A stretch of 64,000 bases of DNA from an uncultured euryarchaeote (GTDB lineage Archaea; Thermoplasmatota; Poseidoniia; Poseidoniales; Poseidoniaceae), in the NCBI GenBank assembly GCA_964001175.1, contig CAXFAS010000006.1, forward strand, positions 6,237 to 70,236. Direction: 5' to 3'. The translations under genes were made by a program, and so were the position numbers. The notes below the pieces were generated by a model. That model had not been told where the DNA came from and made no database searches. It was given only the letters and a program-made list of their open reading frames with translations. How positions within the stretch are numbered: the stretch's first letter is position 1; each line of letters begins with the position of its first letter. This document shows positions 20,318-51,761 of the stretch, in pieces.

Positions 20318-20321
20318 AACA

Positions 20322-20915: not shown

Positions 20916-21570
20916 AATGGGGACCACTATCACTGCATCTCAAAACATTGAGGCTGCTAATGAGTGTCTTGAAGCCATAAATGCTAGATTCTCCGGTTCA
21001 GGAATTGTTGCCTCAGTAGAACACCATTCAAATGCAAAAAAATTCGCATTTATTAGAATTACAACACCTCCACAACACTGGCAAGCTTTAGCAAAATGGA
21101 TGCGTTTTGACCTAGAAGTAAATTATTGCTCAATGGTCACAGGCACCCATTTTCCAGATGGCCCTGATGAAAGAGGGTGGGAAGTTGCTTATCATTTTCT
21201 ACGACAACCGATTACCGACCAACTACCCGATACAAGTACAGTTTATGTTGCAGAAAAACTCGACGGAAAACTGATTCCAATGGAGTTCGAAGTACTAATT
21301 CCTCTAGAGAATAATGATTCACCAGTAGTTCCAACAGTTCAACATATATGGGTGGGTGCCGATTGGAACGAAAAAGAAACATGGGATTTAGTTGGGATTA
21401 AATTTGAGGGGCATAATAACATGCACAGAGTCCTAAATCCTCACGATAGTCCTGAAGGTTTCCATCCCTTACAGAAACAACACAAAATCCGATATCAAGA
21501 TCATAATGAAATGTATGACGATGCTCAAGGCTTTGGCCGAAAACCTGCGGACGAGGGCCGCGTTAAGTGA
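20908..21570 (+). CDS. nuoC: NADH-quinone oxidoreductase subunit C
   Basis: PTVQHIWVGADWNEKETWDLVGIKFEGHNNMHRVL matches the 30-kDa subunit signature. The start overlaps the nuoB stop. Confidence 0.85.
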   Translation: MSKMGTTITASQNIEAANECLEAINARFSGSGIVASVEHHSNAKKFAFIRITTPPQHWQALAKWMRFDLEVNYCSMVTGTHFPDGPDERGWEVAYHFLRQPITDQLPDTSTVYVAEKLDGKLIPMEFEVLIPLENNDSPVVPTVQHIWVGADWNEKETWDLVGIKFEGHNNMHRVLNPHDSPEGFHPLQKQHKIRYQDHNEMYDDAQGFGRKPADEGRVK

Positions 21571-21579
21571 GGCGATATT

Positions 21580-22719: not shown

Positions 22720-22728
22720 GGTGATACT

Positions 22729-24231: not shown

Positions 24232-24241
24232 GGTGAAAATT

Positions 24242-25216: not shown

Positions 25217-25493
25217 TTTGGACGTTGGAGCAATTGTCGAAGCAGGTGTATTCTTCCTGTTTGCCACCATAACTATAGGTGGTGCTTTGGGACTTATTTT
25301 GGCTCAAAGAGTTGCTCACTCCATGCTTTCATTGATATTCTGTTTTATGGCGGTCTCTGGAATTTTTATCCTACTTGGTGCTGAATTCCTTGCTGCAATT
25401 CAGATTTTAGTTTATCTTGCCAGCGTTGGACTTGTAGTATTATTCGGCATTATGCTCACTAGAAGACAAATACTTGAGGAGGATTTCGAATGA
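25209..25493 (+). CDS. nuoJ: NADH-quinone oxidoreductase subunit J, N-terminal part
   Basis: Three TM helices. Its operon position and the motif LGAEFLAAIQILVYLASVGLVVLFGIML match the NuoJ core. Confidence 0.7.
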   Translation: MPDLDVGAIVEAGVFFLFATITIGGALGLILAQRVAHSMLSLIFCFMAVSGIFILLGAEFLAAIQILVYLASVGLVVLFGIMLTRRQILEEDFE

Positions 25494-25759
25494 AATTTCT
25501 TTCTCTTGTAACTCGAATTGGCCTACTAGCGCTTGGGATGATTCTGGTTTCAGTATTAAGCGCTGACGAAGTATGGGATAATTCAAGTGAAAGTGAACCA
25601 ACAACAAATGCCTTAGCAGATATTATGCTTAATGAATGGGCATTACCACTGTTAATGCTTGGGGTTTTGATGTCTATTGCAATGATTGGTGCTGCATATT
25701 TAGTTCGTGATGAGAGAAGAGAAAACCTTCTCTGGGAATTTGGAGGTGAAGAGGAATGA
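25490..25759 (+). CDS. nuoJ: NADH-quinone oxidoreductase subunit J, C-terminal part (separate ORF)
   Basis: ATGA start/stop overlap with the preceding ORF and its own GAGGAGG SD. Two TM helices in the position of the NuoJ C-terminal half. I recall a split nuoJ1/nuoJ2 in other archaea. Confidence 0.55.
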   Translation: MKFLSLVTRIGLLALGMILVSVLSADEVWDNSSESEPTTNALADIMLNEWALPLLMLGVLMSIAMIGAAYLVRDERRENLLWEFGGEEE

Positions 25760-26058
25760 TCGATCCATCATGGGTTTCAGCCCTTTCAGCCCTATTATTC
25801 ATTATTGGACTTGCTGGGGCATTTACTCGTAAGAATGCAATAATTGTTCTAATGTGCATTGAATTAATGTTGAATGCTGCCAATATGCAATTTGCCGCTG
25901 CTGCTGTTCATCACGGAGATGCTACTGGCTGGATTTACACTATTTTTGCAATTGCAATTGCTGCAAGTGAAGTTGCTATAGGATTAGCAATTTTCCTTGC
26001 AATGTATGGTAAGCATGAATCGATATCATTGGACGATGTGGACGTCCTTAAAAACTGA
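25756..26058 (+). CDS. nuoK: NADH-quinone oxidoreductase subunit K
   Basis: 100 aa with LFIIGLAGAFTRKNAIIVLMCIELMLNAAN, the NuoK signature. Confidence 0.9.
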   Translation: MIDPSWVSALSALLFIIGLAGAFTRKNAIIVLMCIELMLNAANMQFAAAAVHHGDATGWIYTIFAIAIAASEVAIGLAIFLAMYGKHESISLDDVDVLKN

Positions 26059-26067
26059 GGTGAGATA

Positions 26068-28347: not shown

Positions 28348-29976
28348 ATGAATGATTGGATTTCTATTCCTTTAGTTGCATTCCCATTAGTATCTAGTAT
28401 GATTTTATTGGGCTTCGTATCTAATGCATCTCCGCGAGTTAGGGACGGATTGGTCAATCCGGTTAGAATGGCATGTCTTGTCTTCTCACTAGTTATGTTA
28501 GCACTAACAACAGGAATGTTTTTCAGATACTTTGGAGATGTATCATGGATGGATATTGCATTCAATGATTATGAATTCTTTGTAACCTATTCTTGGATTG
28601 ATTCTTTAGGAATAAATTGGACTGTAGGATTAGACGCCTTATCTTTCCCTATGGTTTGGTTGACAACTTTCTTGTTACCTGTTACAATAATTGCTACATG
28701 GAATGAGAAATATGGTGCTACTTATTTCCCTCTTCTTTTGATGATGGGTGGAGCTTTAATTGGAGTATTTGTATCTCTAGACTTATTCATGTTCTATATC
28801 TTCTGGGAGTTAACTCTAATCCCTATGTTCTTCCTAATTCTCAAATGGGGTGGAAAAGACCGAAAGTATGCTGCTCAGAAATTCTTCATTTACACGTTTA
28901 CTGCTTCTGTAGTTATGTTACTCGGCCTAATTACTCTATACTTCTTACAAGAGCCGAATACTCTTGCTTCTGCAGGTTCTATGACAGGTCGAAGTTTCTC
29001 TATTCCAGAATTGATAGATTCTGCAAGAACAGCAAATGCTGGAGATAACTGGTTCCTTGGAAAGACAATGCAGAATATTTTGTTTGTTATGCTAATGATT
29101 GGATTTTTAGTAAAACTTCCAGCAGTACCATTCCACACTTGGTTGCCCGACGCTCACGTTCAAGCACCTACAGGCGGTTCTATGCTTTTAGCAGGTGTAA
29201 TGCTGAAGATGGGTGCTTATGGAATGTTTAGACTTCCTCTAAGTTTATTCCCTCACGCTCTCTATCACTTCCAGTTAGCATTAATGATCATCGGAATAGT
29301 ATCTTTGGTCTGGGGAGCAATTGTCTGTTTAGGTCAAACCAATTTGAAGAAGATGGTTGCTTATTCATCGGTTTCACACATGGGTGTTATTTTGATTGGT
29401 ATTGCTACAATGCAACCTATGGGATGGGCTGCTGCATTGTTCATGATGTTTGCACACGGAATTATTAGCCCAATGTTATTCGCCGTATGTGGTGCTTTCA
29501 AGCATCATTATCACAGTATGGAAATTGGTGCAATGCGGGGAATGGCTAAGCATTCTCCATGGCTTGCAACATCTATGATGTTTGCTTGGATGGCTTCTTT
29601 GGGACTTCCACTTCTTGCAGGATTTGTAGCAGAAATAATGATGTTAATCGCACTTTGGCATTTAATTTCATTAGATGGATGGAGTATCTGGTGGATGGTT
29701 GGTCCTGCACTTGTATTAGCATTGACTGCAGCATACTATCTATGGTCCATGCAAAGAACAATTTTCGAAGGAGGGGCTGATACACAACCTCCAGAATCGA
29801 TGCGTGGAAAAGCGATTCCGGATATTTCTAATCCAGAGAAATTTGCTATGATTTTACTTGCCTTCTTTACAATCCTATTTGGAATAATGCCTTGGATTGC
29901 CTTAGATATGATGGACGATTGGACAAAACAAATTTTCAATGGCTTAATTATATTTGTTGGAAAGGGAGGTGCCTGA
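28348..29976 (+). CDS. nuoM: NADH-quinone oxidoreductase subunit M
   Basis: LVKLPAVPFHTWLPDAHVQAPTGGSMLLAGVMLKMG and KKMVAYSSVSHMG, the NuoM/ND4 pattern. Confidence 0.9.
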   Translation: MNDWISIPLVAFPLVSSMILLGFVSNASPRVRDGLVNPVRMACLVFSLVMLALTTGMFFRYFGDVSWMDIAFNDYEFFVTYSWIDSLGINWTVGLDALSFPMVWLTTFLLPVTIIATWNEKYGATYFPLLLMMGGALIGVFVSLDLFMFYIFWELTLIPMFFLILKWGGKDRKYAAQKFFIYTFTASVVMLLGLITLYFLQEPNTLASAGSMTGRSFSIPELIDSARTANAGDNWFLGKTMQNILFVMLMIGFLVKLPAVPFHTWLPDAHVQAPTGGSMLLAGVMLKMGAYGMFRLPLSLFPHALYHFQLALMIIGIVSLVWGAIVCLGQTNLKKMVAYSSVSHMGVILIGIATMQPMGWAAALFMMFAHGIISPMLFAVCGAFKHHYHSMEIGAMRGMAKHSPWLATSMMFAWMASLGLPLLAGFVAEIMMLIALWHLISLDGWSIWWMVGPALVLALTAAYYLWSMQRTIFEGGADTQPPESMRGKAIPDISNPEKFAMILLAFFTILFGIMPWIALDMMDDWTKQIFNGLIIFVGKGGA

Positions 29977-29977
29977 T

Positions 29978-31705
29978 ATGTCTACATTGAAGACAGTAGA
30001 ACCATTTGGTGAAGGTTTCATTTCCGCTTTATGTCCTGAACTAATTCTATTTGCAGGTTTGATTCTATTGATTATTGTTCCAAATCTTGGAACTGGTAAA
30101 TTTAGGGTTCCAGGAACTCAGACCAGAGTTTATTGGTTATTTGGTGGTAATAGATTCAAACTTACCAGTGACCCAAGATTACCTTCTTGGATCGCAGTAA
30201 TAACTCTCGGTACAGCTTTCCTAATGTCCATACTTTCATTCCAAGATGGAGTTGAAAGAACCGCAATAGTTAGTGAAGGAGGAACTGAAATACTGATGGT
30301 AAATGCCTTTAGCAGAGTATTTGAATTGGTATTTTTCGGTGCTTTGACTTTAGCAGCATTTGCATCTATGAATAGAATGGATGTCAAAGGCATTGGAGCA
30401 AAATTATCCTCTGAAGATTTATACAATAACCGCAGACAAGGTGACTTCTATATTTTGATGGTAACATGTGCTATAGGTATGTCTATTGTTGCATTAGCAC
30501 AGGATTTATTCGTTCTTTTCATTGGACTTGAACTTGCATCATTCTCAACTTATGTGCTTGTCAGTTTCTTTAAGGAAACCAAGGCTGGAACAGAGGCAGG
30601 GATGAAGTATTTCATTGTCGGTTCAGTTGCTTCTGGTGTAGGGTTGTATGGTTTGTCGATGCTCTATCTATGGGCTGGTTCTCTACAATTAGATGTTCTA
30701 GCAACAACATTTGCTAGTTCCGGCAGCGAAGCACTTCCAATGATTGCGATTGGATTCGTATTAGTTGGCTTTGGCTTCAAAGTTAGTGCTGCTCCTTTCC
30801 ACTTTGCAGCCCCTGATGCTTACTCAGGTGCTAGTAGCCCTGTTGCTGGGGTTCTTGCTACAGCAAGTAAAGCGATGGGAATTGTCGGTTTGCTCAGAGT
30901 ATTACTGATTATAGCAGCTCCAGAATCAAGTGAAGATGGAACAGTTTGGCTTGTACTTCTAGGATTATTATCTGTGATTACAATGACCTGGGGTAATCTA
31001 GCAGCTCTAGGAAGTACCAACCCGAAGAGAATGTTGGCTTACTCATCAGTTGCTCACGCCGGATATATGCTTGCAGCTATTACTGCAATAGGGGCTTGGA
31101 ATTGGGATGAGAATTTATCAGGAGATCCTGGAGAAGCGGCTGTTGTTGTTCTTGCCGCCATTATCTTCCATCTTATTGTTCTAGTAGCATTCAAGCTAGG
31201 TGCATTCTTAGTTCTTTCAGTACTTGAAACAGAAGGAGGAGGATCAAGATTATCCTCATTAGGCGGCTTAGCAAAGAGAGAGCCTTTCCTAGCAGTTTCT
31301 ATGTTTATTTTTATGATCTCTCTAGCAGGTGTTCCACCTCTAGCAGGTTTCATGTCTAAATTACTTGTAATTATGGGAATAGTTAAGGTCGCCTTAGGAG
31401 ATATGAGCGATGCTATTGCCACAGGTAGCGAACTTGGTTTATCAGATGTTCATTGGGTTTGGTGGCTAGCATTTGCCATGATTATCAACTCTGCAATTTC
31501 CGTATATTATTATCTTAGAATTGGTGTTGTAATGTTCTTTGAAGAAGCAGAGCCAGGTAGAGATGGACCTCTACCAAATGGTTGGCAAGTTAGATTTGCT
31601 ATTCTAGCCTGTTTATTAGCCACTTTATTCATTGGAGTTGCTAGTGATAAGTTGATTGAGATTTGTACGATTGCTGCTGAAAGTTTCAATTATAATTGGT
31701 CTTAA
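29978..31705 (+). CDS. nuoN: NADH-quinone oxidoreductase subunit N
   Basis: GFKVSAAPFHFAAPDAYSGASSPVAG and KRMLAYSSVAHAGYM, the NuoN/ND2 pattern. GGGAGGTG SD before ATG 29978. Confidence 0.85.
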   Translation: MSTLKTVEPFGEGFISALCPELILFAGLILLIIVPNLGTGKFRVPGTQTRVYWLFGGNRFKLTSDPRLPSWIAVITLGTAFLMSILSFQDGVERTAIVSEGGTEILMVNAFSRVFELVFFGALTLAAFASMNRMDVKGIGAKLSSEDLYNNRRQGDFYILMVTCAIGMSIVALAQDLFVLFIGLELASFSTYVLVSFFKETKAGTEAGMKYFIVGSVASGVGLYGLSMLYLWAGSLQLDVLATTFASSGSEALPMIAIGFVLVGFGFKVSAAPFHFAAPDAYSGASSPVAGVLATASKAMGIVGLLRVLLIIAAPESSEDGTVWLVLLGLLSVITMTWGNLAALGSTNPKRMLAYSSVAHAGYMLAAITAIGAWNWDENLSGDPGEAAVVVLAAIIFHLIVLVAFKLGAFLVLSVLETEGGGSRLSSLGGLAKREPFLAVSMFIFMISLAGVPPLAGFMSKLLVIMGIVKVALGDMSDAIATGSELGLSDVHWVWWLAFAMIINSAISVYYYLRIGVVMFFEEAEPGRDGPLPNGWQVRFAILACLLATLFIGVASDKLIEICTIAAESFNYNWS

Positions 31706-31770: not shown

Positions 31771-32472
31771 GTGGGTAGACGACGTGAAGAAAAGGTAGAC
31801 GTGGAAGAACTAGCCCGTCTAGAGAATCCAGAAGATGGTTTTTCTGGAAAGATTCGTGTCAAGATGCCAAATCGAAAAATAAACGAAATGTTTGCACTAG
31901 CAGAACAAATTCTAGGCGGACGTAGAGTTACAGTTCTTTGCGAAGACGGAGAGACTAGATTGGCTAGAATTCCAGGTAAAATGCGAAGAAGACAATGGGT
32001 CCGTGAAGGTGACTTAATTATCGTTTGGCCATGGGACTTCCAAGATTCCAAAGCAGATGTAAAACATCGGTATACTAAGACACAATCAATGTATTTGTCT
32101 AGAAAAGGCGTATTACCGGATGATGTTGATGTGTTTGGAATGAATGTATCTCATGATGATGATGATGAACATGACGATTTGTTTGGAACAATGGATCAAG
32201 AAGATTCAGATTTATTTGAAGATTCAGAAGAAGAATCTGATGATGACGTTGATGATTTATTTGGAGATTCTGATGATGATGATGAAGACGATGATTTATT
32301 TGCATCTGATGATGATTCAGAAGATGATACAGCAGAAGAATTAGCCAATAGTGAAGAAACTAAGGCGGAAGAAGAGACTGAATTTATTCCAGTAGAAGAG
32401 TATCCAGAATCTGAAGAGGCCGAAGAAGAAGATGATGATGACGATATTGATATTGATTCATTATTTGGATGA
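31771..32472 (+). CDS. eif1a: Translation initiation factor aIF1A with a ~110-aa hyper-acidic C-terminal extension
   Basis: S1/OB core RVTVLCEDGETRLARIPGKMRRRQWVREGDLIIVWPWDFQDSKADVKHRY. Tail rich in D/E with five D-x-LF(G/E/A) motifs. GTG start. Confidence 0.85.
   Translation: MGRRREEKVDVEELARLENPEDGFSGKIRVKMPNRKINEMFALAEQILGGRRVTVLCEDGETRLARIPGKMRRRQWVREGDLIIVWPWDFQDSKADVKHRYTKTQSMYLSRKGVLPDDVDVFGMNVSHDDDDEHDDLFGTMDQEDSDLFEDSEEESDDDVDDLFGDSDDDDEDDDLFASDDDSEDDTAEELANSEETKAEEETEFIPVEEYPESEEAEEEDDDDDIDIDSLFG
32152..32472 (+). repeat. GAT/GAA-rich low-complexity coding tract (acidic tail of aIF1A)
   Basis: Runs of gatgatgatga/gaagaagaa. This tract creates the spurious ORFs in other frames (32099..32305 -, 32144..32344 +, 32196..32498 -). 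Confidence 0.85.
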
Positions 32473-36213: not shown

Positions 36214-39009
36214 GTGCTTTGCAATATGTCGATGTTGTATATGGCAGGAAAGTGGCAGGCAATCATTGGCTTGATGATACTATGTGTTGCGACGCTTCCA
36301 ATTAATGCTACTGCTTATGATAGTAATGGGATAGAAGCCTCAGAAGCCCAAGTTACTCTAAGCCCATCAACAGGTTTGACACAAGGTGATTCTGTAACAG
36401 TATACCTAACTTTGACAAATACTTTACAATCTGACGCATTTGATGTTGAATTTGCTTTTTTCAAGAATGATTATACTTCGAGTCAACAATTGTTGAGAAG
36501 TGTTGTAGATATTTATGCTCAGGAAAGTGAGACTGTATCTGTAACATGGGATAATTTACAGGAAAGTGATAGTCGTGTTTGGATTGTTTTTGAGTATGGG
36601 GGTTCTGAGCAATCGTTTTACATGGACTTTGATGTAGCCGGACTACCGAATTTACGAATTATTCAATCGGATTTATCACCCGCCTCAGGTATTAATTCAG
36701 GAGATACAGTTCAACTTTCTACTCTAGTAAAAAACACAGGTTCTGAAGCAGCACAGTCCAGTACCCTTCATATCGATTTTCCAGCACCATTAGTTGATCA
36801 AGAAATTACTACTTCAGCCCTAAATACTGGCCAAGAAGAGTGGATTAATACAACTTTCATAGCACCTCAAAGCAACTCTTATTCAATTTATATTACGCCA
36901 GATTTCCATGATGATGTTATTGAAGCATCAGAAAATAATAAGGTAGAAACAGTCACTCTAAATGTTGAGCCTAGAATGGATGTTTACCATCAAGAAAATA
37001 TTACAATTACTGCAGTTGAGGGTGCTCTAGAAGGCCCTTGGACAATATCGGGTAAGTTAGCAAGAACCGGCGGTAGTGGAACAACGGTAGTTCCTATGTG
37101 GATAGAAATCGCTACAGGGCAAGGAGGAATAATCACCGCTCAACCTTTTGATGTAACTCTTCAAGGAGCAGGGTACGCAGAACAACCATGGTCTTTCACT
37201 CTTAATTCTAGTATAGTTACATCTCTTTCTGCTGGAGGATATACTTTATCTGCTCAAATTGATCCATTTGATGATCCAAATTTCCTTCAAGAGACTACTA
37301 CGAATGACCGTTCCAGTGCATTATTAACTATACTTGAAGTTCCAGATGTATTTGTAGACCCCAAAGCAAGACCATCCTCTCCACAAGTTAATTCAGGCGA
37401 GAAAGTGACGTGGCAAGTTACTGTTACCAATACTGGTGGATTACAAGTCAGTGGAAAAATTGAGTATACCTTTGAAGGAGTTACCGACTTATCAAGTCTA
37501 ATTACACTCAATCCTAGTGAATCTTATACTTGGAGTAAAGAACTTTCAACGGGAGTTGGAGCACATATTGCTCCATTCGAAGCAAATTGGATTGCAACAC
37601 AGGGTAGCTGGGATAATAATTTGATGAATAATCAGGCAGTTAGCAATATTTCAGTTGAAGCAAATCTTAGACTAAATTGGGCAACCTCTTCTCTTCGTTT
37701 AACCGACGCTTCGGGCAGTGATGTAAATTTCCCAATAGAAGAGGGAGAGACATATGTATTTTCAATAAATCTTACAAGTCAGGAATTAGGTGATTTATCA
37801 TTTGACTGTAGAAATGGTGAAAATCAAATTCTATCCACTACTGAAGTAAATGTCTCTAGTACTGGACAAAAAGTATCATTACAATGTGAATTTACTGCTA
37901 TTGCGCCTCTTTCTACTATTCAGTTAATACCTTCGGATACTTCAGTTACTACTACTTTCACCAGACAATTTTCAACTTCTTTCACCTCTGATGATGACTC
38001 ATCAGCACAATCAAAGTCTGGGACTATGACTTTAATTGGAATAGTCGTTGTAGCCTTAATTGCAATTCTAGCACTTGCAGTTTGGTTTACTAGAGAAACA
38101 GAAGAAGAAGTGGAAAGAGACATTTTCGAATACTGCCCAGCCTGTGATGGAGAACTTGAAGGCGATGAGTCACGTTGCCCTCACTGTTCATTTAATCTAA
38201 ACAAGGCTAGAAAGCAATTCCACCAATGCCATGAATGTGGTGAATCTGTTCCAGACTTGATGGATAATTGTCCGTACTGTGGTGCTAAGCAAGATGTTTC
38301 TTCATTCTTTGAGAGAAGGGAAAGAAAAGTTAGAACTGCCCCGAAGGTTGAAATTGCCCTTCCTGAGGATGATGACGATGAAATAGTTTCAGGAACTGAA
38401 AACTTTGCTGAAACCGTCAAAGAATTTGGCTATGATGAAGATCAACTAGAAGAGGAGTGGGATCAGAAGTTTGCTAAAGCAGAGGCTGAAATTGCCGAAT
38501 TAGAGCAATTATATGAAGAGGAAGATATTTCTACAGAAGGTATGACTCCAGAAGAGATTGAAGAACTAGAATCTCAGGTTACAACTAAATTACGAACACT
38601 CAAGCAATTAGGTGAAGATTCTAGTAGTATAGAGGAGATGTTAGCTGCTAAAGGTGATTTGATTTCTCATAAAGACGATGGTGGTGAATTATCGGCTAGT
38701 GATGCAGATATTAGAGGAAGATTGTATGAGATTACTGGTGAAGCGGGAATTATGCCTGGCGATGAAGTTCATGTTGGAATGACTCTTTCTGATGCCGCTT
38801 TGGCTGGTAATGAAATCGAAGAAGCACAGAGTGATTTTACCTTTGAAGATAATGAACCAGTTGCAAAATTAGAAACTAAAGATGAACTAACCCCTCAAAG
38901 ACAAAAACCCAAGCGGCGTGAAAAGAAAACCGCAGAATGTGGTGCTTGTGGTGCACAAATCCCAATTATGGCAAAAGAATGCCCTGTTTGCGGTGCAGAA
39001 TTTGAGTGA
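36214..39009 (+). CDS. Surface protein: CARDB-like repeats, single TM, cytoplasmic double zinc ribbon, acidic coiled-coil region and a terminal zinc ribbon
   Basis: CARDB patterns (GDTVQLSTLVKNTGSEAA; IEASENNKVE). TM helix MTLIGIVVVALIAILALAVWF. CPACDG-x8-CPHC...CHECG-x10-CPYCGA, and terminal CGACG-x10-CPVCGAEFE. Confidence 0.6.
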   Translation: MLCNMSMLYMAGKWQAIIGLMILCVATLPINATAYDSNGIEASEAQVTLSPSTGLTQGDSVTVYLTLTNTLQSDAFDVEFAFFKNDYTSSQQLLRSVVDIYAQESETVSVTWDNLQESDSRVWIVFEYGGSEQSFYMDFDVAGLPNLRIIQSDLSPASGINSGDTVQLSTLVKNTGSEAAQSSTLHIDFPAPLVDQEITTSALNTGQEEWINTTFIAPQSNSYSIYITPDFHDDVIEASENNKVETVTLNVEPRMDVYHQENITITAVEGALEGPWTISGKLARTGGSGTTVVPMWIEIATGQGGIITAQPFDVTLQGAGYAEQPWSFTLNSSIVTSLSAGGYTLSAQIDPFDDPNFLQETTTNDRSSALLTILEVPDVFVDPKARPSSPQVNSGEKVTWQVTVTNTGGLQVSGKIEYTFEGVTDLSSLITLNPSESYTWSKELSTGVGAHIAPFEANWIATQGSWDNNLMNNQAVSNISVEANLRLNWATSSLRLTDASGSDVNFPIEEGETYVFSINLTSQELGDLSFDCRNGENQILSTTEVNVSSTGQKVSLQCEFTAIAPLSTIQLIPSDTSVTTTFTRQFSTSFTSDDDSSAQSKSGTMTLIGIVVVALIAILALAVWFTRETEEEVERDIFEYCPACDGELEGDESRCPHCSFNLNKARKQFHQCHECGESVPDLMDNCPYCGAKQDVSSFFERRERKVRTAPKVEIALPEDDDDEIVSGTENFAETVKEFGYDEDQLEEEWDQKFAKAEAEIAELEQLYEEEDISTEGMTPEEIEELESQVTTKLRTLKQLGEDSSSIEEMLAAKGDLISHKDDGGELSASDADIRGRLYEITGEAGIMPGDEVHVGMTLSDAALAGNEIEEAQSDFTFEDNEPVAKLETKDELTPQRQKPKRREKKTAECGACGAQIPIMAKECPVCGAEFE

Positions 39010-39154: not shown

Positions 39155-39703
39155 ATGAGAGTCAAGATTTTACCTATTTTAGTAACTCTGACTTTTGTTA
39201 CTGTCAGCCTATCAGGTTGTCTAGGTCTAATACAAGCGAGAGAATCATTAGAAAGCCTAAGAGGCGAGCCTGAAGATGTTGAATACACAGAAAAAACATC
39301 GGTACTCTATACTTTTGATACGATAGACTCAAAGCAATTTAATGAATCATTTACCGTCAATGAAAAGGTACAAAGAATCGAAATTTACATCAAAGTTAAA
39401 TTTAATTTTGATGAATTTATTCCTTGTTTTGATGGTTCACCAAGGTATGTCCGAGCAGAAATAATCAAGCCATCTGGAGAACCCTTGTGGTCTATGGATG
39501 TCTGTGAAGATTATTCGCCTCCCAATTTCAATTTTAACAGCTCATCTACTACTTTTGAATCTGGAACATGGGATCTAAATGTAGATGCTCAAGCTGGCGG
39601 TGAGACTGCACTTGGAGGTCTAGTTAAAGATGAATTCATCATTATTGTAAACGTTTACCACAAATGCAGACAATATCCTCAGGATACTCCATGTAATGAA
39701 TGA
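39155..39703 (+). CDS. Putative lipoprotein / small secreted protein
   Basis: Signal peptide ending in the lipobox-like LSGC. No family recognised. Confidence 0.4.
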   Translation: MRVKILPILVTLTFVTVSLSGCLGLIQARESLESLRGEPEDVEYTEKTSVLYTFDTIDSKQFNESFTVNEKVQRIEIYIKVKFNFDEFIPCFDGSPRYVRAEIIKPSGEPLWSMDVCEDYSPPNFNFNSSSTTFESGTWDLNVDAQAGGETALGGLVKDEFIIIVNVYHKCRQYPQDTPCNE

Positions 39704-39705
39704 AA

Positions 39706-40902
39706 TTATGCAAGAGATTCATCACATGCATAACGGCGAGAACAATTTTGACATTTGCCTTTTCTTTGATGATTCCTTTTCGCTCCACCTTCAATCATTA
39801 ATCTTTGAATCTCTTGAATCGATTTGTTCAAAAGTTGTTTTGCTTCTTCATCCCATTTTATCTGATGAATATCTTCATTGCCATATCTAAGAATTCCATA
39901 AGGAGTATTTCGCTTTGTATTTATTTCTACAAGCTGAAGATATGCTAATAATTGCATCTTATGTGAAGTATGAGGTCTTTTAGGAACACGCCCAGTTTTT
40001 TGCTCTACGGGTATGAATTCTCCATCAATAACTACGATTTGATCTGGCCTGCCCCTAAGTCCAGAGTTTTCATCAATGAGAAGACCGGAACTCTCCTCAT
40101 CATCCGAATATGCTATCTCAGTATCTTTTTCTAAACCAGTATGTTTCCTTGCTAGTTCAGCAGAATTTTCAGTAAGAAGTACTCTTTGAAGTTGCCATGA
40201 TGCAGCTAGAGTCCATAACATTGCTAAAGTAAATAGAATAAATCCTGCTTGAGTTCTATTTTCAGCACCAACTAAAGCAATTGAATGGATTCCAAGTAGA
40301 ATAATACTGAATAGTAATCCGGTTTCAAATTTACCTGCTTCAAACCATCCTCCTTTGAAATCTAGAGATTCCCATTCAGACTCTAGAATTTGACTTTCTC
40401 TTCTCAGTCGGTTCTTTTTTTCTCTAATTGTTTCTTCAAACCCGAGCCAGTTACGCCATGGAACTGAAATTGCTATTATAGCAAAAATTAGCAAACTGAC
40501 ACTCCACATAGCAAGATATCTTGCTAAATCTACCGGTGAGAAAACAATATCATCAATAATAATGAATGCTATAGAATCTATTGAAAGTGCAATAATTACC
40601 GTAAACCACCATGTCCAGATTACTAGATGACGCTTAAATTCTGATTGTTTTTCTTGAAATTGAATAACTTGCTCATGAATTTCAGCATGTTTCTGTTTTC
40701 CGAGTTTTATCGCCTCTCCTTGGCCAGAATTACCTTCTCTGGCTAGTGACCAAGACATTGGACAATAACTATGCCTTTCTATATCGCTGGCGCTAATTCT
40801 AAGCGGGTTGTTATTTGAATCTCTCCAAAACCCATCTTTGCATAATTTTGCGTCAAAAAGGGTGTTTGAGCGGGACATCTGATTACTTCCAGTCTCCGCC
40901 AT
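39706..40902 (-). CDS. Cas4/RecB-like PD-(D/E)XK nuclease with Fe-S cysteines, interrupted by four predicted TM helices
   Basis: N-terminal SDIERHSYCPMSW and KLGKQKHAEIH. C-terminal RGRPDQIVVIDGEFIPVEQKTG (D...ExK), HKMQLLAYLQL (QxxxY) and CQNCSRRYAC (Cx2Cx5C). Four hydrophobic helices lie between them (for example VIWTWWFTVIIALSIDSIAFIII and YLAMWSVSLLIFAIIAISV). Confidence 0.6.
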   Translation of the reverse strand: MAETGSNQMSRSNTLFDAKLCKDGFWRDSNNNPLRISASDIERHSYCPMSWSLAREGNSGQGEAIKLGKQKHAEIHEQVIQFQEKQSEFKRHLVIWTWWFTVIIALSIDSIAFIIIDDIVFSPVDLARYLAMWSVSLLIFAIIAISVPWRNWLGFEETIREKKNRLRRESQILESEWESLDFKGGWFEAGKFETGLLFSIILLGIHSIALVGAENRTQAGFILFTLAMLWTLAASWQLQRVLLTENSAELARKHTGLEKDTEIAYSDDEESSGLLIDENSGLRGRPDQIVVIDGEFIPVEQKTGRVPKRPHTSHKMQLLAYLQLVEINTKRNTPYGILRYGNEDIHQIKWDEEAKQLLNKSIQEIQRLMIEGGAKRNHQRKGKCQNCSRRYACDESLA

Positions 40903-41045
40903 AACTGTCCTTAATCGTCTTCGACCTTGTAATCTTCGTTAATTTGAATCAAGGAAATATTACAAAATTAAGACTTTCAAACTTTTATTATGCTGCGAAG
41001 CGGTTTAATATGGGGGCTAAGTGGAGCGAACGCTGAGGTTATTAG

Positions 41046-41674: not shown

Positions 41675-44503
41675 GTGACTTTTAGTGCCCTGCTTATGGG
41701 AACTGGAGACGATAGTTACATCGACTATGGTAAGTATCAAGCCTCCCTTGAAGATTTGAGTTTTAGAAATAGAAGTATCCTACTTTGGTTTAGTTTTGGG
41801 ATAATTTGGTTATTTTTAAATATCTACGTATTCAATATTCTTTGGTTTTGGGAAGAATTCTATTTTGCAATTTCAGAGGCAGGATGGCAAGTTGTCACTG
41901 AGAATTCCGACGGCACTCAGTGTGTAGTTACTGAATATGAATCATGTGAACGTCTTGTAGGTGCAGGCGGGGTGTGGTGGTCATTACTAGGTAGTTTGAC
42001 GACCGGAATTGCGGTTGGGCCATTAGTCTTCTCTGCTTTGATATTATCATACCGAAATAAGGATGTAACGAAAAAGTGGAAAGAAGAAACATGGGGATTA
42101 TTATTTCTAATCAATCCTTCAATTATTTGGGCTTTATTATTCCTAATATGTTTGCCATATGCATGGACATTATTACCATGGGGTGAATGGTCTACAAATT
42201 GGTGGAAAATTTTTCCCTTTGGATTCGGATTGATTTGGTTGGGCGGACTTCCACCGATTTTGGTTATTAGTAATTTTTTCAAGAAACTTTTCAACCGAGA
42301 ATATAACTCAGACATAACAGTGGAAGCGGGGATTATGCCTGGTGAAGATAGTGAAGAAGGTCAAATGCCAACACAACCAACAGCTTCAGAGGTTGCTAAT
42401 TCAGTAGATGCGAGGTCGTCATATATTGAGGCTGGAATACCCCCAGAACCATCGTTAGGAGGCAGTGCAATATTTGTCGCAATTTTGGCTGCACTCATGA
42501 TAATTCCTGGAATAGTATTGCTAATAATTGGTGGCGTAATGGCAGAAGAGTCCATTGAAGGGGAAGGGAGTTCTAGTTATACTCTAGAGATCATTGATGA
42601 AGACAGTTCAGGTGACCTAGGATTCATCATATTCATTCAAGCAACGCCTGGTGATTTCAACGGAAATGGAATGCATGATTATTGTGAAAATATAATCGTT
42701 AATGCTAATCATTCGGGAGCCTGGATGAGTGACCCATGGACAGGATGGTCCTCATATAATGAGCCGGATGAAACAAGGCAAGTATTCGAACTTGAAATTT
42801 CTCATAGGGGTAGTGGTTGCGATACACAACACTGGCCGAAAGAAAAGTGGGTAAACGATATTCAATTGGTAAAAATTGGAAGAGCATGTTATGGTTGTAT
42901 GGCAGGGAACACAACAATCACTGCAGAATATACACCTGAAACTGAACCAAAACCAGTCGGGATGTGGATACAAGATGGCGAAAAAATCAAAGAATCTACT
43001 ACTTTGACAATTATTGGAGCTGTTCTGACTGGAATTGGTGGATTGTCACTCACGATAATAATTATAGTAATAATTTCTAAATCCAAAGCAGCAGCGATGC
43101 AAGACTCTGAAGGTCAAAAAGAGCCAATTGAGATTATTGAATCGAAACCAGGTCAACCGGTACGCTTCAGAATCAATGACCCTCCGAATGGGAGGGATGC
43201 ATGGGTAGGCATCTATCCTCCTAGCGCTGGTGATCAAGACCACGGTGATAGATGGAGTTGGCTCAGAGATATTGATGTGAATAACGCCACATTACCGGGA
43301 CAACCTGCCGGCGAGTGGAGCATTCGGGTCTTCAAGGACGGCGGATACAAACTCCAGCATCGCGTGGATTTCGAGATTTCTAGTAGCCCCCAACACCCCG
43401 CTAGACCAACCTCATCTGAAGGCATAGTCGGAGGAAATGCAACAATCACAACCTCCAAATCCACATACACGATTGATGAGGGTATCGATTTCTCTTTCGC
43501 CGCACCCAAACTACCCAATGACGCTTGGATAGGAATCGTACCCGTAGCGATACCTCATGGCGATGAAGCAGTTAACGATAGCCACGATACCAGTTATGAG
43601 TATCTTGGAGGCAGGACCAAGGGGGACATCATCCTGCCTAACCCTGGATTGGGAACGTGGACTCTAAGGCTTCATAATACGGACAACAATGGTCGAGAGC
43701 TTACACACGTCGTCTTTGAGGTTGTTTCATCTCCTGCTAGACAGCAAGAATCCATTGAAATTTTACAAGCAGTAGTCGGCAAACCAGTGCGTTTCAAAAT
43801 CAACAATCGTCCTAGCGGTAACGAAGCTTGGTTTGGTTTGTATCCTGTGCAAGCGACTGACCACGAGCATGGAGAACAACACCAAAACTGGATGTATTTC
43901 CGAGACGTAGGTCAAAATGAACTCTCTCTTCCAGCCAAATCTGCAGGCAGATGGAGCATTAGAGTCTTTTCAGATGGTGGATTTAACATGATTAAGCGAT
44001 TAGATTTTGATATTACCGGGACTCATGGCAATGTCGCTCAATTACACCCCTCCGATGGGCGCTACGAATTAGCGCCAGATGAGTTGTCTTGGAATGAGCA
44101 CAATGACCGTGCTCTAGCGATGGGAGGCCACCTTGTTTCGATTACCACCGCAGAGGAAAACGAACTGGTCGCACGAATCGCTGGTAAAAGAACCGTATGG
44201 ATTGGTGGAATGAGGAAAGGCTCGGGCAATGGCCCTGGTGCTGACCACTGGTATTGGTGTGACGGGCAACCTTGGATATATGCGAACTGGGCTCCAGGCG
44301 AGCCGAACAACTACGGAGGTAACGAGAACAGAATACACCTATTCGGACATAACAAATTGTGGAACGATGTCGGTGAGGATTGGAGAGGCCCCGCAGTATA
44401 TCAATTGCCAAAGGAAAAATCAATACAGTCGGCCAAGAAAATACAGTCAGCATTAAAACAGTCTACTAGAGAAAAGAAAGATAACTTTTGGGATTCAGCA
44501 TGA
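41675..44503 (+). CDS. Polytopic membrane protein with a Cys-containing extracytoplasmic loop domain, three ~95-aa repeats and a C-terminal C-type lectin-like domain
   Basis: About six TM helices. R1 and R3 share clear residue similarity by eye (PVRFRINDPPNGRDAWVGIYP... versus PVRFKINNRPSGNEAWFGLYP...), with a divergent middle copy. The C-terminal CTLD pattern is GGHLVSITTAEENELV...VWIGG...WYWCDGQPWIYANWAPGEPNN...KLWNDV. GTG start; alternative ATG at 41696. Confidence 0.65.
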   Translation: MTFSALLMGTGDDSYIDYGKYQASLEDLSFRNRSILLWFSFGIIWLFLNIYVFNILWFWEEFYFAISEAGWQVVTENSDGTQCVVTEYESCERLVGAGGVWWSLLGSLTTGIAVGPLVFSALILSYRNKDVTKKWKEETWGLLFLINPSIIWALLFLICLPYAWTLLPWGEWSTNWWKIFPFGFGLIWLGGLPPILVISNFFKKLFNREYNSDITVEAGIMPGEDSEEGQMPTQPTASEVANSVDARSSYIEAGIPPEPSLGGSAIFVAILAALMIIPGIVLLIIGGVMAEESIEGEGSSSYTLEIIDEDSSGDLGFIIFIQATPGDFNGNGMHDYCENIIVNANHSGAWMSDPWTGWSSYNEPDETRQVFELEISHRGSGCDTQHWPKEKWVNDIQLVKIGRACYGCMAGNTTITAEYTPETEPKPVGMWIQDGEKIKESTTLTIIGAVLTGIGGLSLTIIIIVIISKSKAAAMQDSEGQKEPIEIIESKPGQPVRFRINDPPNGRDAWVGIYPPSAGDQDHGDRWSWLRDIDVNNATLPGQPAGEWSIRVFKDGGYKLQHRVDFEISSSPQHPARPTSSEGIVGGNATITTSKSTYTIDEGIDFSFAAPKLPNDAWIGIVPVAIPHGDEAVNDSHDTSYEYLGGRTKGDIILPNPGLGTWTLRLHNTDNNGRELTHVVFEVVSSPARQQESIEILQAVVGKPVRFKINNRPSGNEAWFGLYPVQATDHEHGEQHQNWMYFRDVGQNELSLPAKSAGRWSIRVFSDGGFNMIKRLDFDITGTHGNVAQLHPSDGRYELAPDELSWNEHNDRALAMGGHLVSITTAEENELVARIAGKRTVWIGGMRKGSGNGPGADHWYWCDGQPWIYANWAPGEPNNYGGNENRIHLFGHNKLWNDVGEDWRGPAVYQLPKEKSIQSAKKIQSALKQSTREKKDNFWDSA

Positions 44504-49061: not shown

Positions 49062-51761
49062 ATGAGTATGTTAAATAACAGCAAGATGATGCTTGGTGCC
49101 GCTTTGGCACTATTAGTTTTGAGTGCCCCTTTGTCGATGCTTTCGACAGGTGCGGTTGAAGGCGCAGTGGAAGAAAATTTTGAAACATTCCCTGCAGATA
49201 ATGCCTGTGCAAATGATGATTGTACAGAAGCAGAAGAAGATTGGGCAACAAGCACTGGTGAAAGAAGTTACTACGCTTGGAATCTAACCAATCCAGGCGC
49301 TGCAGAACCAGTGTATGAACAGGTAGGTCCTTTTGATTATGATATCACTTACACACGTGAAATCATTGATTTCAATGAGTCTGCTGGAACCCTAACTTAC
49401 AGTGAATCTAAGGTTTACACATGTGCTGAAGACACAAGAACCGCCTGTGATACTGAGGTTACTACAACCAATATTCCATTCCAACCACAAGTTGTTGGAG
49501 CAACAGGACTAGCAATTTCTGGAATCATGGATCTTACTAAGGCCGGATTCGCTGCAGGAGCAATCAACAATGAGATGACTTCATTCAGTGCTGGTAAAGC
49601 AACTGCTGACGGTCTTGCAACCACTTACGGTGGTATCCAAGCTGGAGCAATGACCGGTGGAGCAGCAGTCGATGCAGGAACAGCTTCAACGATGATTGGT
49701 GTTGGTTATTATGACGCTTTTGACGCATTCTTTGCCGCATCCAACATGTCCGGAATGGGCGCCGTAACATACACACAAGCAATCCAAGGACAACAAGCAG
49801 CTTCCGGTGGAGTAACCTTCGCAGGTAACTCATCAATTACCAATATGTCTTACGCATTCGACTCCGCAATGATGCCAACAGGTGAAGATGTTTCACTAAC
49901 TGGAATGGTCGGTGTTATGGTCCTTTCTGGACACTGTAATGCATTCCCAACAGCAACCTATGATGAAGTAATGGCTGACGCAGCAAATGGCTTTGAAAAC
50001 GTTGGAACTATGCAAAGAGCCAGTATCTGGGGATTCACAGTAATGGCAAGTGAATCCATGCCTGATGTTAACGCTACTATTGCCAACGACTGGGCTCTGT
50101 GCTTCGGCGTTGGCGGCACATTCGCTAACACTCATGGTGGCGGTGATGACGGATGGTTTACTGACCAAACTGGTACTGCTATCAATGCATCAACTCGTAT
50201 GATGAATTATCTTGGAGTAGATATTGACAATGCAGTAGCAATGAATCTATTGTTTGGAGGTCAAGGCGATGCAGTTCCAACTGGTCTGTTAGCAACCGAC
50301 GCAGTTGGTAGTGATTCAGCAACAGCATTCGGTGTTGCAACATTCATTGGAATGGACGCTGCAACCGCAATGACCACTTACAGTTTAGATATGGCACAAT
50401 ATGGTGCAATCGCCACATGGGTTGGCGGATGGCTTACCAGTCAATCCGCACTACCAATGGTTCTTCTAGGCGGTTCAGGAACAATAACTGCTGAGGAATT
50501 CGTTAACGTCACTCTTGGTGGACAAGACCCAATTAATGGGGGCTATCTAACTTACAGCCTAAACCTAGGTGGAGCATGGGGTACAGCATTAATGCCTACA
50601 TCACCTCAAGGTACTCCGGTATCTGTTGATGCAGCAACTGCTGGAAACTTGCTATACGGACCACTTGGAATTACCACATCAACTGGAGCTGGTTTATTCC
50701 TATACGGTGAACTATTTGGTGAAACTCCTCCTATTGACCTACAAACAATGTCACCTGGAGCGCCGATGACTTGGGATGAAACTACAGTTTCAGCAATCTA
50801 CGGAATTGACGCAAATGCTGCCGCAGCACTAAGAATTATGCTAAGAGATGTAGTATACGATGACTTTGTACCAGGTTTCCTAGTAGGATTAGGTAGTGAT
50901 GGTCAATACAAGACACAAACTGTAAACGAGTGGCTATATGGTTGGAGAGATCCAGTAAGCGCTTTCGTTGCTGGTGATATAACCAATATGTCTCTAGGTT
51001 GGACTAAACTAGAAACTAACCAAACCTACTACGGTTCTGGCGGTGTTTCAACTGGACCTGCAACAACTTACACAATTTGTACCGGACACAACTCAGACTG
51101 TGACAAAGGAGAGACACTTCTTGAAGATGGCTCCAACGAACTATCTTGGCACAGCACACAAATGATGATGGCTACATTCGGCTTAGTTGGCGTTGAAACT
51201 TTGAATGAAACCACTGGTGGATTCCTAACTGGTGATGGTGACAAGGTTGATGCTGGTGGCTATGCGATAACAGCAGTAACCTGTTCAGGAACTAGTGAAG
51301 TCAAGAATATTCCAGTTGATGATTGTTCTGCATCTGTTGACCCAACAACACGACCAATTACTGCTAAACTAATCAAGTCATTTACTTTAGTAGATGCAAT
51401 TGTCCCTGCTTTACCTGTTTACTTCGGTACTGAAATTAACATGCAAGCAGAGCAACTATCTGGATTGATTATCGCTGGTGATTCAACTTCTACTTTCTAC
51501 CTAGATATGAGAGGCCCATATGATAGAGCAACTGCGCCACAAATGAGCGACTTGCAACCAGTATTCCAAATCGTACAATCCTCTGAGATTGCTGATGATG
51601 ATGCAGAGGATATGGAAAGTTCCATTGTAACCAATCAAAATGGTTTGAGTTACTGGACTAACTTCGATGTTCCTACTGACTACATTGCACTACTATTGTA
51701 CCTTGGTGCAGTTGCATGTCTAGTTCTTGCTGTTATGGCAATGAACAAAGAAGAAGAGTGA
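49062..51761 (+). CDS. CD36/LIMP-2/SR-B-family-like membrane glycoprotein homologue with a ~470-aa Ala/Gly/Thr-rich insertion
   Basis: N- and C-terminal hydrophobic anchors. Three blocks resemble CD36-family signatures as I recall them (YFFNVTNP...EVGPYTY...NI.F.DNGT.S; TV.ELLWGYKD; the PHF...F.DI.P.TG region). They are SYYAWNLTNPGAAEPVYEQVGPFDYDITYTREIIDFNESAGTLTYS...TTNIPFQPQV; TQTVNEWLYGWRDPVSAFV; and LPVYFGTEINMQAE...TFYLDMRGPY...LQPVFQIVQS. Confidence 0.5.
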   Translation: MSMLNNSKMMLGAALALLVLSAPLSMLSTGAVEGAVEENFETFPADNACANDDCTEAEEDWATSTGERSYYAWNLTNPGAAEPVYEQVGPFDYDITYTREIIDFNESAGTLTYSESKVYTCAEDTRTACDTEVTTTNIPFQPQVVGATGLAISGIMDLTKAGFAAGAINNEMTSFSAGKATADGLATTYGGIQAGAMTGGAAVDAGTASTMIGVGYYDAFDAFFAASNMSGMGAVTYTQAIQGQQAASGGVTFAGNSSITNMSYAFDSAMMPTGEDVSLTGMVGVMVLSGHCNAFPTATYDEVMADAANGFENVGTMQRASIWGFTVMASESMPDVNATIANDWALCFGVGGTFANTHGGGDDGWFTDQTGTAINASTRMMNYLGVDIDNAVAMNLLFGGQGDAVPTGLLATDAVGSDSATAFGVATFIGMDAATAMTTYSLDMAQYGAIATWVGGWLTSQSALPMVLLGGSGTITAEEFVNVTLGGQDPINGGYLTYSLNLGGAWGTALMPTSPQGTPVSVDAATAGNLLYGPLGITTSTGAGLFLYGELFGETPPIDLQTMSPGAPMTWDETTVSAIYGIDANAAAALRIMLRDVVYDDFVPGFLVGLGSDGQYKTQTVNEWLYGWRDPVSAFVAGDITNMSLGWTKLETNQTYYGSGGVSTGPATTYTICTGHNSDCDKGETLLEDGSNELSWHSTQMMMATFGLVGVETLNETTGGFLTGDGDKVDAGGYAITAVTCSGTSEVKNIPVDDCSASVDPTTRPITAKLIKSFTLVDAIVPALPVYFGTEINMQAEQLSGLIIAGDSTSTFYLDMRGPYDRATAPQMSDLQPVFQIVQSSEIADDDAEDMESSIVTNQNGLSYWTNFDVPTDYIALLLYLGAVACLVLAVMAMNKEEE

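Follow-up and report, generated by a model that had tools for sequence, protein, structure and literature searches.

The subject of this analysis is a 64-kb stretch of DNA (64,000 nucleotides of contig CAXFAS010000006.1, assembly GCA_964001175.1, referred to below as the window) from an uncultured euryarchaeote of the Poseidoniaceae, and in particular one minus-strand gene within it, the features of which are listed in Table 1. It is a strongly conserved gene of Marine Group II (MGII) archaea, and encodes one Cas4 domain that is split by four predicted transmembrane (TM) helices. An initial annotation, made from the letters of the window, had described the product as a solo Cas4-like nuclease of the PD-(D/E)XK type, with both halves of the domain in canonical order but separated by about 190 residues containing four strongly hydrophobic helices. 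It had argued that an even number of helices would keep the halves on the same side of the membrane, where they could still assemble, and had noted that no cas genes or CRISPR array were nearby and that no described membrane-embedded Cas4 was known to its author. Degradation of incoming DNA at the envelope, or DNA processing coupled to the membrane, had been put forward as possible roles. Those claims were followed up by profile, structural, phyletic and neighbourhood analyses.

Table 1. Coordinates of the split Cas4 gene, the parts of its product and the adjoining features in the window. Residue numbers are those of the 398-amino-acid (398-aa) product; pLDDT, predicted local distance difference test; KD, Kyte-Doolittle; AF2, AlphaFold2; K/R, Lys plus Arg.
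Feature	Position	Strand	Details and evidence
Complete open reading frame (ORF), predicted membrane-embedded Cas4-family nuclease	39706..40902	-	398 aa; stop codon 39706-39708; ORF list
N-terminal extension, poorly conserved, residues 1-36	40795..40902	-	Mean orthologue identity 0.30, versus 0.6-0.7 elsewhere; pLDDT <50 for residues 1-11
Cas4 N-half, residues 37-91, with C47 (40762-40764) and the G68...H72 metal-ligand helix (H72, 40687-40689)	40630..40794	-	Conservation; alignment to 8d3l_I; pLDDT ~90 for residues 21-50
TM hairpin 1, residues 92-148 (TM1 ~92-116, short outside loop, TM2 ~125-148)	40459..40629	-	KD maxima; AF2 helices; K/R-poor loop
Loop between hairpins, residues 149-189, charged, predicted cytoplasmic, probably disordered	40336..40458	-	pLDDT <50; mean of 5.0 K/R across the family; identity 0.40
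TM hairpin 2, residues 190-243 (TM3 ~190-213, short outside loop, TM4 ~221-243)	40174..40335	-	KD maxima; AF2 helices
Helical linker from TM4 to the beta-sheet core, residues 244-261, predicted cytoplasmic	40120..40173	-	AF2 helix 216-255; K/R-rich C-flank
Cas4 C-half, residues 262-398, with D287...E300-x-K302 (39997-40044), Q317xxxY321 (39940-39954) and C384x2C387x5C393 (39724-39753)	39709..40119	-	Profile matches; conservation; Foldseek
Intergenic region shared with divergent uS2 (rps2), 143 bp	40903..41045		Sequence read; uS2 adjacency in 79/80
Putative lipoprotein gene, 182 aa (N-terminal hydrophobic segment followed by Cys, LSGC)	39155-39703	+	No Pfam or PADLOC match

The motifs quoted in the initial annotation are all found in the window protein, at the places that it indicated: HSYCPMSW (C47), GKQKHAEIH (G68 and H72), RPDQIVV (D287), VEQKTG (E300 and K302), QLLAY (Q317 and Y321) and CQNCSRRYAC (C384, C387 and C393). 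The catalytic set (metal-ligand His, Asp, ExK and QxxxY) is present, as are the four cysteines, one N-terminal and three in a C-terminal Cx2Cx5C motif, all of which align with cysteines of the type I-C Cas4 structure 8d3l_I. The domain is not, as in canonical Cas4 proteins, a contiguous soluble unit of about 160-220 aa, for residues ~92-243, with the four predicted TM helices, interrupt it. The poorly conserved extension at the N terminus is of interest in that the true start of the protein may be an internal methionine, for example M9.

Profile searches support the family assignment. Against Pfam cut-offs of 22.7 and 22, the protein scored 46.3 bits for PF01930 and 38.1 bits for PF12705, and it also exceeded the cut-off of TIGR00372 'cas4' (67.1 bits, against 65). 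These Cas4 matches are confined to residues ~266-394, those to PF01930 and TIGR00372 to ~271-393; the isolated TM region and the isolated N-half did not match any Pfam family. The PADLOC Cas4 models were matched at 1e-19, the PADLOC matches comprising only the generic Cas4 and the DruK nuclease models.

An alignment was then constructed from the window protein and 86 relatives, 23-92% identical, from the Poseidoniaceae and from the forms of ~330 aa found in Thermoplasmata. It is apparent that C47, G68, D287, K302, Q317, Y321, C384, C387 and C393 are invariant in all 87 sequences, and that H72 and E300 are conserved in 90% or more of them, in clades that are only 23-34% identical to each other. 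Conservation of the full catalytic set over such distances is the pattern expected of an active enzyme. Nuclease activity and the binding of an Fe-S cluster are predicted, from sequence, for the window protein.

Four hydrophobic segments were identified between H72 and D287, with maximal KD values (19-residue windows) of 2.16, 2.28, 2.19 and 1.50. The TM assignments made here rest on hydropathy, on the helices of the AlphaFold2 (AF2) models and on the positive-inside rule. H72 and D287 are 214 residues apart; as the corresponding residues of Sso0001, His62 and Asp99, are separated by 36 residues (PMC12501428), the net insertion amounts to ~175 residues, the membrane module (residues 92-243) accounting for ~150 of them. 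The four helices of the initial annotation are thus retained, while its estimate of ~190 inserted residues is too high and the fourth of its strongly hydrophobic helices is only moderately so.

The distribution of positively charged residues was determined for 78 four-TM members of the family. K+R counts averaged 4.3 in the 15 residues before TM1, 0.9 (0.86) in the TM1-TM2 loop (mean length 8.7 residues), 5.0 in the TM2-TM3 loop (mean length 20.5), 0.8 in the TM3-TM4 loop (mean length 7.5) and 3.3 in the 15 residues after TM4. The 'inside' segments exceeded the 'outside' loops in every one of the 78 sequences. There is no signal peptide. Given the positive-inside pattern, the lack of a signal peptide and the predicted Fe-S cluster domain, both nuclease halves are predicted to be cytoplasmic, with only two very short loops outside; as each hairpin adds two helices, both halves would remain on the cytoplasmic side. 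Taken together, the hydrophobic helices, the K/R-poor hairpin loops and the K/R-rich flanks and central loop identify the insert as a TM module, as had been proposed, and not as buried core.

The membrane module is itself well conserved. Mean orthologue identity is 0.54-0.72 in the TM helices and 0.61-0.71 in the catalytic halves, TM4 being the most conserved segment (0.72). Two residues of hairpin 2, W230 and A234, are invariant across the family. D109 in TM1 (40576-40578) and H206 in TM3 (40285-40287) are invariant across 80 orthologues from the Poseidoniaceae (MGIIa). The two residues stand at matching positions of the hairpin repeat (IDSIA in one hairpin, IHSIA in the other) and, being charged or polar within the bilayer, suggest that helices are locked together there or that an ion or a metal is bound. 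D109 and H206 are not conserved in the wider family, and no polar intramembrane residue is conserved family-wide.

To compare the two halves with canonical Cas4 proteins, residues 92-250 were deleted in silico from 16 family members and a profile was built from the excised sequences. Positions 7-208 of that profile align with residues 7-202 of 8d3l_I (E 5.6e-8), and the match takes in the Cys motif near the N terminus, the G..H element and Cx2Cx5C. Collinearity with canonical Cas4 is restored only after excision of the insert, and Pfam coverage of the excised sequence reaches further towards the N terminus, to profile position 30. These results bear out the earlier proposal that both halves of one domain are present in canonical order.

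The AF2 model of the window protein, computed with the 87-sequence alignment, has a mean pLDDT of 78 and a predicted TM-score (pTM) of 0.71. An unbroken helix (residues 62-115) joins the His-bearing helix to TM1, and is followed by the TM2 helix (123-146), a charged disordered loop (149-189, pLDDT <50), the TM3 helix (186-212) and a second unbroken helix (216-255) that carries TM4 out of the membrane, after which the beta/alpha core begins. The best Foldseek matches of this model are Dna2, the type I-C and I-G Cas4 proteins, MGME1 and ACE1. A model of a natural relative with two TM helices (P0187) has a pLDDT of 83 and can be superposed on a complete type I-C Cas4 (8d3l_J) with a TM-score, normalised to target length, of 0.66 across 280 columns. 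Because this 2-TM model superposes on the whole of a Cas4, it would appear that, within the family, the fold is rebuilt around the hairpin.

The family to which the window protein belongs is a large one. More than 1,100 database proteins match it at E<=1e-3, and a relative is encoded by 186 species-representative genomes. The 80 species genomes listed for it carry orthologues ranging from 92% down to 53% identity. All of the closest proteins and loci belong to Candidatus Poseidoniaceae or Poseidoniales (Marine Group II), and include the original MG-II genome, CM001443 (locus L007). One contig, CAXQWT010000025.1 (L061), is binned as 'MAG: Salipiger bermudensis', a bacterium, yet its genes run in the order typical of the Poseidoniaceae (Dus-uS2-Cas4TM-lipoprotein); almost certainly the contig is archaeal and was binned in error. 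Viral homologues were not detected in INPHARED (tblastn) or IMG/VR (pattern scan). Relatives are labelled 'CRISPR-associated protein Cas4' or 'Dna2/Cas4 domain-containing protein' by annotation pipelines; the former label is misleading for genomes that lack CRISPR.

HMMER, run exhaustively against 1.84 billion cluster representatives, yielded 794 proteins at E<=1e-3. Among the best 150 of these, 63 contain the N-terminal Cys motif, a GxPD motif and the C-terminal Cys triad, and in those 63 the distance from the Cys motif to GxPD was measured. The values fall into discrete classes, with nothing in the gaps between them: 69 residues (n=1, no insert), 124-150 (n=19), 192-241 (n=28) and 330-449 (n=15). 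By hydropathy, the last three classes correspond to two, four and eight TM helices. The odd counts (1, 3, 5, 7 and 9) produced by the first hydropathy passes proved to be artefacts, in which the buried QxxxY helix was counted or two helices were merged. The even number noted in the initial annotation is therefore a rule of the whole family, and the insertion point is identical in the 2-, 4- and 8-TM relatives.

The classes appear to be related by duplication. The 2-TM relatives align to window residues ~195-397, that is, to the second hairpin and the C-half. The 8-TM forms are tandem duplications of the 4-TM module, with Smith-Waterman z values of 5-22 in 10 of 13 cases. For the older duplication, from two helices to four, a comparison of hairpin 1 with hairpin 2 of the 4-TM forms gave an hhalign probability of 96.5%, a score that TM composition may inflate; the same comparison within the window protein alone was not significant by Smith-Waterman (z = 1.2). 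For these two reasons the 2-to-4 duplication is regarded only as probable.

When placed by the source names of the database records, the 4-TM forms derive from the Poseidoniaceae and from many Thermoplasmata, including Natronoplasma and Saliniplasma, and the 8-TM forms from Thermoplasmata. The 2-TM forms derive from other Poseidoniia (MGII/III) and from Methermicoccus shengliensis (WP_052353351), a methanogen in culture. The lineage formed by the host clade would seem to be a separate one, inherited vertically.

Lower-scoring relatives of ~170 aa do not represent soluble Cas4 proteins: each has one N-terminal TM helix and, after it, the C-half only. These proteins are bacterial (the named sources being Anaerolineaceae), of constant length, and the contigs that encode them measure up to 134 kb. 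Bacterial loci were retrieved from metagenomes with one of these proteins. An ORF of 74-84 aa is situated directly upstream of the gene for the TM helix and C-half (~175 aa) in at least 20 of 22 of them; its product is the Cas4 N-half (xYCxRAWWY, GxxEH) with one TM helix after it. The stop codon of this ORF overlaps the start of the next gene or lies no more than ~70 nt upstream of it. The loci concerned are L092-L114; examples are found at 2780-3004 and 3001-3528 in L092 and at 1197-1502 and 1510-2049 in L110. A second split lineage retains the arrangement, although it is only ~40% identical to the first in the C-half and ~29% in the N-half. In one lineage the split genes lie in an ssb-DUF3467-(translin-like) operon, and in another they adjoin a gene for a family-4-type uracil-DNA glycosylase (UDG).

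The bacterial pair is a conserved split of a 2-TM Cas4, with the break falling exactly in the outside loop. Such a split would be hard to explain, were it not that the TM helices pair and so bring the halves together. The invariance of C47 and of the C-terminal Cys triad, the TM-score of the 2-TM model and the existence of separate, TM-anchored halves lend indirect support to the suggestion of the initial annotation that the two halves can assemble into one fold.

It was of interest to determine the genomic setting of the gene. The window is ordinary chromosome, containing the nuo operon and genes for eIF1A, the RIO1 kinase, a KH protein, uS2, Dus, a wyosine radical-SAM enzyme, fatty-acid oxidation and several giant surface proteins. 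Among its ORFs of 120 aa or more, no cas Pfam match was obtained, and neither a CRISPR-like repeat array nor a tRNA gene was found in the 64 kb. The absence of cas genes and of a CRISPR-like array from the window shows the label 'solo' to be correct; cas neighbours were likewise absent from eight other sampled lineages, and neither adjacency or fusion to cas1/cas2 nor a CRISPR array, as would be expected of a CRISPR-adaptation gene, was found in the window or in related loci. The gene lies outside CRISPR-cas loci and mobile elements and is mainly vertically inherited, and is a solo-Cas4 in the sense of Hudaiberdiev et al. (2017).

Within the Poseidoniaceae it is a core gene with a single, syntenic locus. 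The divergent uS2 gene adjoins the Cas4 gene in 79 of 80 Poseidoniaceae species loci, the remaining locus ending at a contig edge, and the intergenic region between them presumably holds both promoters. The gene for the lipoprotein-like protein is tail-to-tail with the Cas4 gene, 2 bp away in the window, an arrangement present in 78 of the 80 loci. In the eight other lineages the neighbourhoods are of a housekeeping kind (ribosomal, tRNA-modification or metabolic) and differ, and include a SecY/ribosomal cluster with ribonucleotide reductase; GlmS, GlmU and RNase HII; chaperones; and Trm1, RpoL and TruD. An operon-based function for the archaeal forms was considered and rejected, as the neighbours differ between lineages and the Poseidoniaceae flanks (uS2 and the 182-aa gene) represent lineage synteny. 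The ratio of nonsynonymous to synonymous substitution rates (dN/dS), relative to the closest orthologue, is 0.041 overall, 0.026 for the N-half, 0.045 for the TM region and 0.030 for the C-half, with dS about 1. Such core-gene behaviour fits a housekeeping gene better than a classical defence gene.

Several other genes of the window merit mention in their own right. A 931-aa protein (36214-39009, plus strand) combines CARDB-type domains, presumably extracellular, with one TM helix and C-terminal zinc ribbons (DZR, UPF0547); a surface protein joined in this way to zinc ribbons is unusual, and the position of the gene is retained across the Poseidoniaceae. Two large proteins are encoded at 41675-44503 and 49062-51761 (plus strand). 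One of the pair scores 27.8 bits for a C-type lectin domain (cut-off 22.6) and the other 45.9 bits for a CD36-family segment (cut-off 26.5) that covers only 84 of 463 profile positions. Both are mostly eukaryotic domains, found here in archaeal proteins. The eIF1A homologue (31771-32472) has a C-terminal acidic tail encoded by four imperfect 39-nt repeats (32160-32315), Asp/Glu-rich and with LFG-like motifs, which constitute the sole direct-repeat family of the window. The nuo operon (19809-31705) is of the complex I type and encodes subunits A, B, C, D, H and I and three antiporter-like subunits. NuoE, NuoF and NuoG, and hence the NADH-binding module, were not matched among the scanned ORFs of that region, the ORFs at 25216-26068 (<120 aa) falling outside the scan.

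The best explanation of these data, to which a probability of roughly 60% is assigned, is that the window protein is a polytopic inner-membrane protein, the cytoplasmic part of which is one catalytically intact [4Fe-4S] PD-(D/E)XK nuclease of the Cas4 family. In the proposed structure, the His-bearing helix would continue into TM1, and TM4 would return into the beta-sheet core, so that the membrane module, probably two copies of a helical hairpin, would be an outgrowth of the helix pair that links the Cys/His element to the core. The two halves would come together in the cytoplasm, to complete both the 1+3 Cys cluster and the metal site (H-D-ExK). The hairpins would hold a sequence-non-specific DNA nuclease at the inner face of the membrane, where it might cut or resect only DNA that reaches the membrane and spare the bulk of the nucleoid.

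With respect to biological role, the protein may be the constitutive 'solo Cas4' of its lineage, engaged in housekeeping processing of DNA ends or single-stranded DNA (ssDNA) during repair or recombination, with incidental degradation of foreign linear DNA that enters the cell, in the manner of RecBCD. According to Hudaiberdiev et al. (2017, PMC5704561), solo-Cas4 genes are inherited vertically and have rates of evolution at the median of their genomes, and the Solo-Cas4 of M. mazei is a non-specific Fe-S DNase that acts on linear and supercoiled DNA and slows growth when overexpressed (Rentz et al. 2025, PMC12501428). The housekeeping role is favoured on the strength of the synteny as a core gene, a low dN/dS, the ssb and UDG neighbourhoods and this published evolutionary behaviour, and is given slightly less than an even chance.

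A number of observations count against the explanation preferred here, or against parts of it. TM4 of the window protein, with its KD maximum of 1.50, falls below the range of its relatives (1.9-2.5). Foldseek aligned the C-half only of the window model (138 columns, target-normalised TM-score, TMt, 0.48), a result limited by the long insert. Conservation of the TM region to the same degree as the nuclease, together with the invariant D109 and H206, suggests that the module is more than a passive anchor. Core-genome status is also compatible with a role in innate defence. No conserved partner gene that would reveal a pathway was found across the lineages sampled. In one Thermoplasmata lineage (P0139) the 4-TM Cas4 gene lies inside a type IV pilus-like cluster (L085 / L086, 389-7698), with a DUF87 ATPase, a T2SSE-type ATPase and a 664-aa ORF upstream and a prepilin peptidase (Peptidase_A24) directly downstream, a setting that hints at uptake of DNA and not at its repair. 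A general link to type IV pili was considered and rejected, as this arrangement is seen in one of roughly nine sampled lineages only.

Alternative interpretations must be weighed against the same data. The protein might be an innate antiviral or anti-plasmid nuclease that cuts DNA at the membrane as it enters, with self told from non-self by location, as in SNIPE. The predicted position at the inner membrane face, the historical association of the Cas4 family with defence, the lack of CRISPR-Cas in the window and the precedent of SNIPE itself, which is constitutively membrane-bound and cleaves phage DNA during injection (bioRxiv 10.1101/2025.11.03.685801), are all in keeping with this idea. 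It is nevertheless judged unlikely: the gene behaves as a core gene, syntenic with uS2 in nearly all species loci, its dN/dS of 0.04 gives no sign of arms-race evolution, no defence genes occur among the neighbours in the sampled lineages, PADLOC returns nothing more specific than its generic Cas4 and DruK models, and a recognition domain for viral proteins is not evident. Still less probable is a DNA uptake or translocation machine with a ComEC-like function, in which the TM hairpins of an oligomer form or line a passage for DNA, with the Cas4 domain acting on the incoming or outgoing strand where the passage opens into the cytoplasm. The conservation of the TM region, which equals that of the catalytic domain and extends to the invariant W230 and A234 and, within MGIIa, to D109 and H206, would be accommodated by such a machine, as would the position of the gene between the T2SSE-type ATPase and 664-aa protein and the prepilin peptidase in one Thermoplasmata lineage, the presence of the bacterial split form in an ssb operon, and the toroidal or high-order oligomers made by other Cas4 proteins (PMC12501428). 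A helix number that varies among 2, 4 and 8, and the lack of any polar intramembrane residue conserved family-wide, are hard to square with a defined channel, and the pilus neighbourhood is limited to a single lineage of those sampled. A broader version, in which the hairpins form a DNA-handling portal with a nuclease ring at its cytoplasmic mouth, serving archaea and Chloroflexi as a device for import, export or interception, is a long shot, rated a shade below the uptake machine.

The remaining alternatives do not invoke an active enzyme or a real membrane module. MGII archaea inhabit oxidising surface waters, and the protein could be conceived of as a catalytically silent membrane tether or an Fe-S redox sensor that binds DNA, or senses oxidation, without cutting. 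A structural or sensory function has been proposed for the Fe-S cluster of some Cas4/Dna2-type enzymes (discussion in PMC12501428). However, H72, D287, E300, K302, Q317 and Y321 are invariant or nearly so across the divergent clades described above, and a silent protein is considered very improbable. Finally, the unusual architecture might by itself raise the suspicion of an artefact, that is, of a mis-assembled or fused gene, or of hydrophobic segments that are in fact the buried core of a soluble protein. The same full-length architecture is encountered in hundreds of independent assemblies, all parts of the gene are under purifying selection, the positive-inside pattern holds without exception among the four-TM sequences counted, the TM classes are quantised, and in the natural split genes each half carries a single TM helix of its own. 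The artefact explanation is effectively refuted.

If the preferred explanation, a membrane-held and catalytically intact Cas4 nuclease, is correct, the findings bear on a long-standing question, namely the role of the solo-Cas4 proteins that are present in most archaea. Here a whole clade of them is predicted to be built into the membrane, which would provide the first concrete spatial clue to the solo-Cas4 substrate: DNA at the membrane. The family would also exemplify an unusual course of domain evolution, in which a soluble enzyme acquires a hairpin that extends into the bilayer, the helices are doubled from 2 to 4 and then to 8 with their number kept even, and the gene is in some cases split in two at the outside loop. 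A catalytic domain interrupted by membrane helices, the doubling of those helices, the split genes and the status of a core gene in a globally abundant archaeal group are the features most likely to surprise. The split forms and the cultured M. shengliensis offer experimental entry points.

A comparison with known systems places these results in context. A full-text search of about 8.3 million papers found no described Cas4 with TM helices, in agreement with the initial annotation. The JCVI-syn3.0 'novel Cas4-like' protein was examined as a possible precedent and rejected, being a soluble Cas4-DEDD fusion. Among nucleases at membranes, the E. coli protein SNIPE (bioRxiv 10.1101/2025.11.03.685801) offers a likeness, in that it is held constitutively at the cytoplasmic membrane and its location could limit the DNA that is cut; this is an analogy only, the localization of the window protein being predicted. 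SNIPE associates with the phage tape-measure protein and host entry proteins, whereas the Cas4 gene of the window is without a defence context and shows neither the variable presence nor the location in defence islands of a SNIPE-like gene, being a syntenic core gene under ordinary purifying selection. ComEC and EndA (PMC5031224, PMC12455585) resemble the window protein in combining a polytopic membrane part with nuclease action on DNA at the membrane, but neither belongs to the Cas4 family. The nuclease of ComEC is a metallo-beta-lactamase domain, accompanied by OB-fold domains and a large dedicated channel domain, and the action of EndA is extracellular. The family described here lacks the conserved polytopic channel domain and the association with competence or pilus genes that would mark a ComEC-like system: the TM number varies, no Pfam domain is found in the TM region and pilus genes are neighbours in one lineage.

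Other relationships are found within the nuclease superfamily. Dna2, AddB/AdnAB, Exo5, MGME1 and the Argonaute-associated ACE1 share the fold of the window protein, and members of this group are among its best structural matches; these domains are soluble, are either helicase-fused or Argonaute-partnered, and are without a TM interruption. With canonical Cas4 (COG1468/PF01930/TIGR00372; Sso0001, 4IC1; Pcal_0546, 4R5Q; type I-C, 8D3L; the type I-G Cas4-Cas1 fusion, 7MI4) the window protein has in common the RecB-like PD-(D/E)XK core with its His, Asp, ExK and QxxxY, and the 1+3 Cys 'iron staple', its halves being collinear with type I-C Cas4. It differs in that a four-helix module of ~150 aa separates the His helix from the first strand of the core, and in the absence of cas1, cas2 and CRISPR neighbours. 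A parallel also exists with the archaeal solo-Cas4 genes (PMC5704561; PMC12501428), which, like that of the window, lie outside CRISPR-cas loci, are inherited vertically under ordinary purifying selection and occur in lineages largely without CRISPR-Cas. Neither of those two papers mentions TM segments or insertions in solo-Cas4 proteins, the purified and characterised one of M. mazei included, whereas the solo-Cas4 described here is predicted to be an integral membrane protein.

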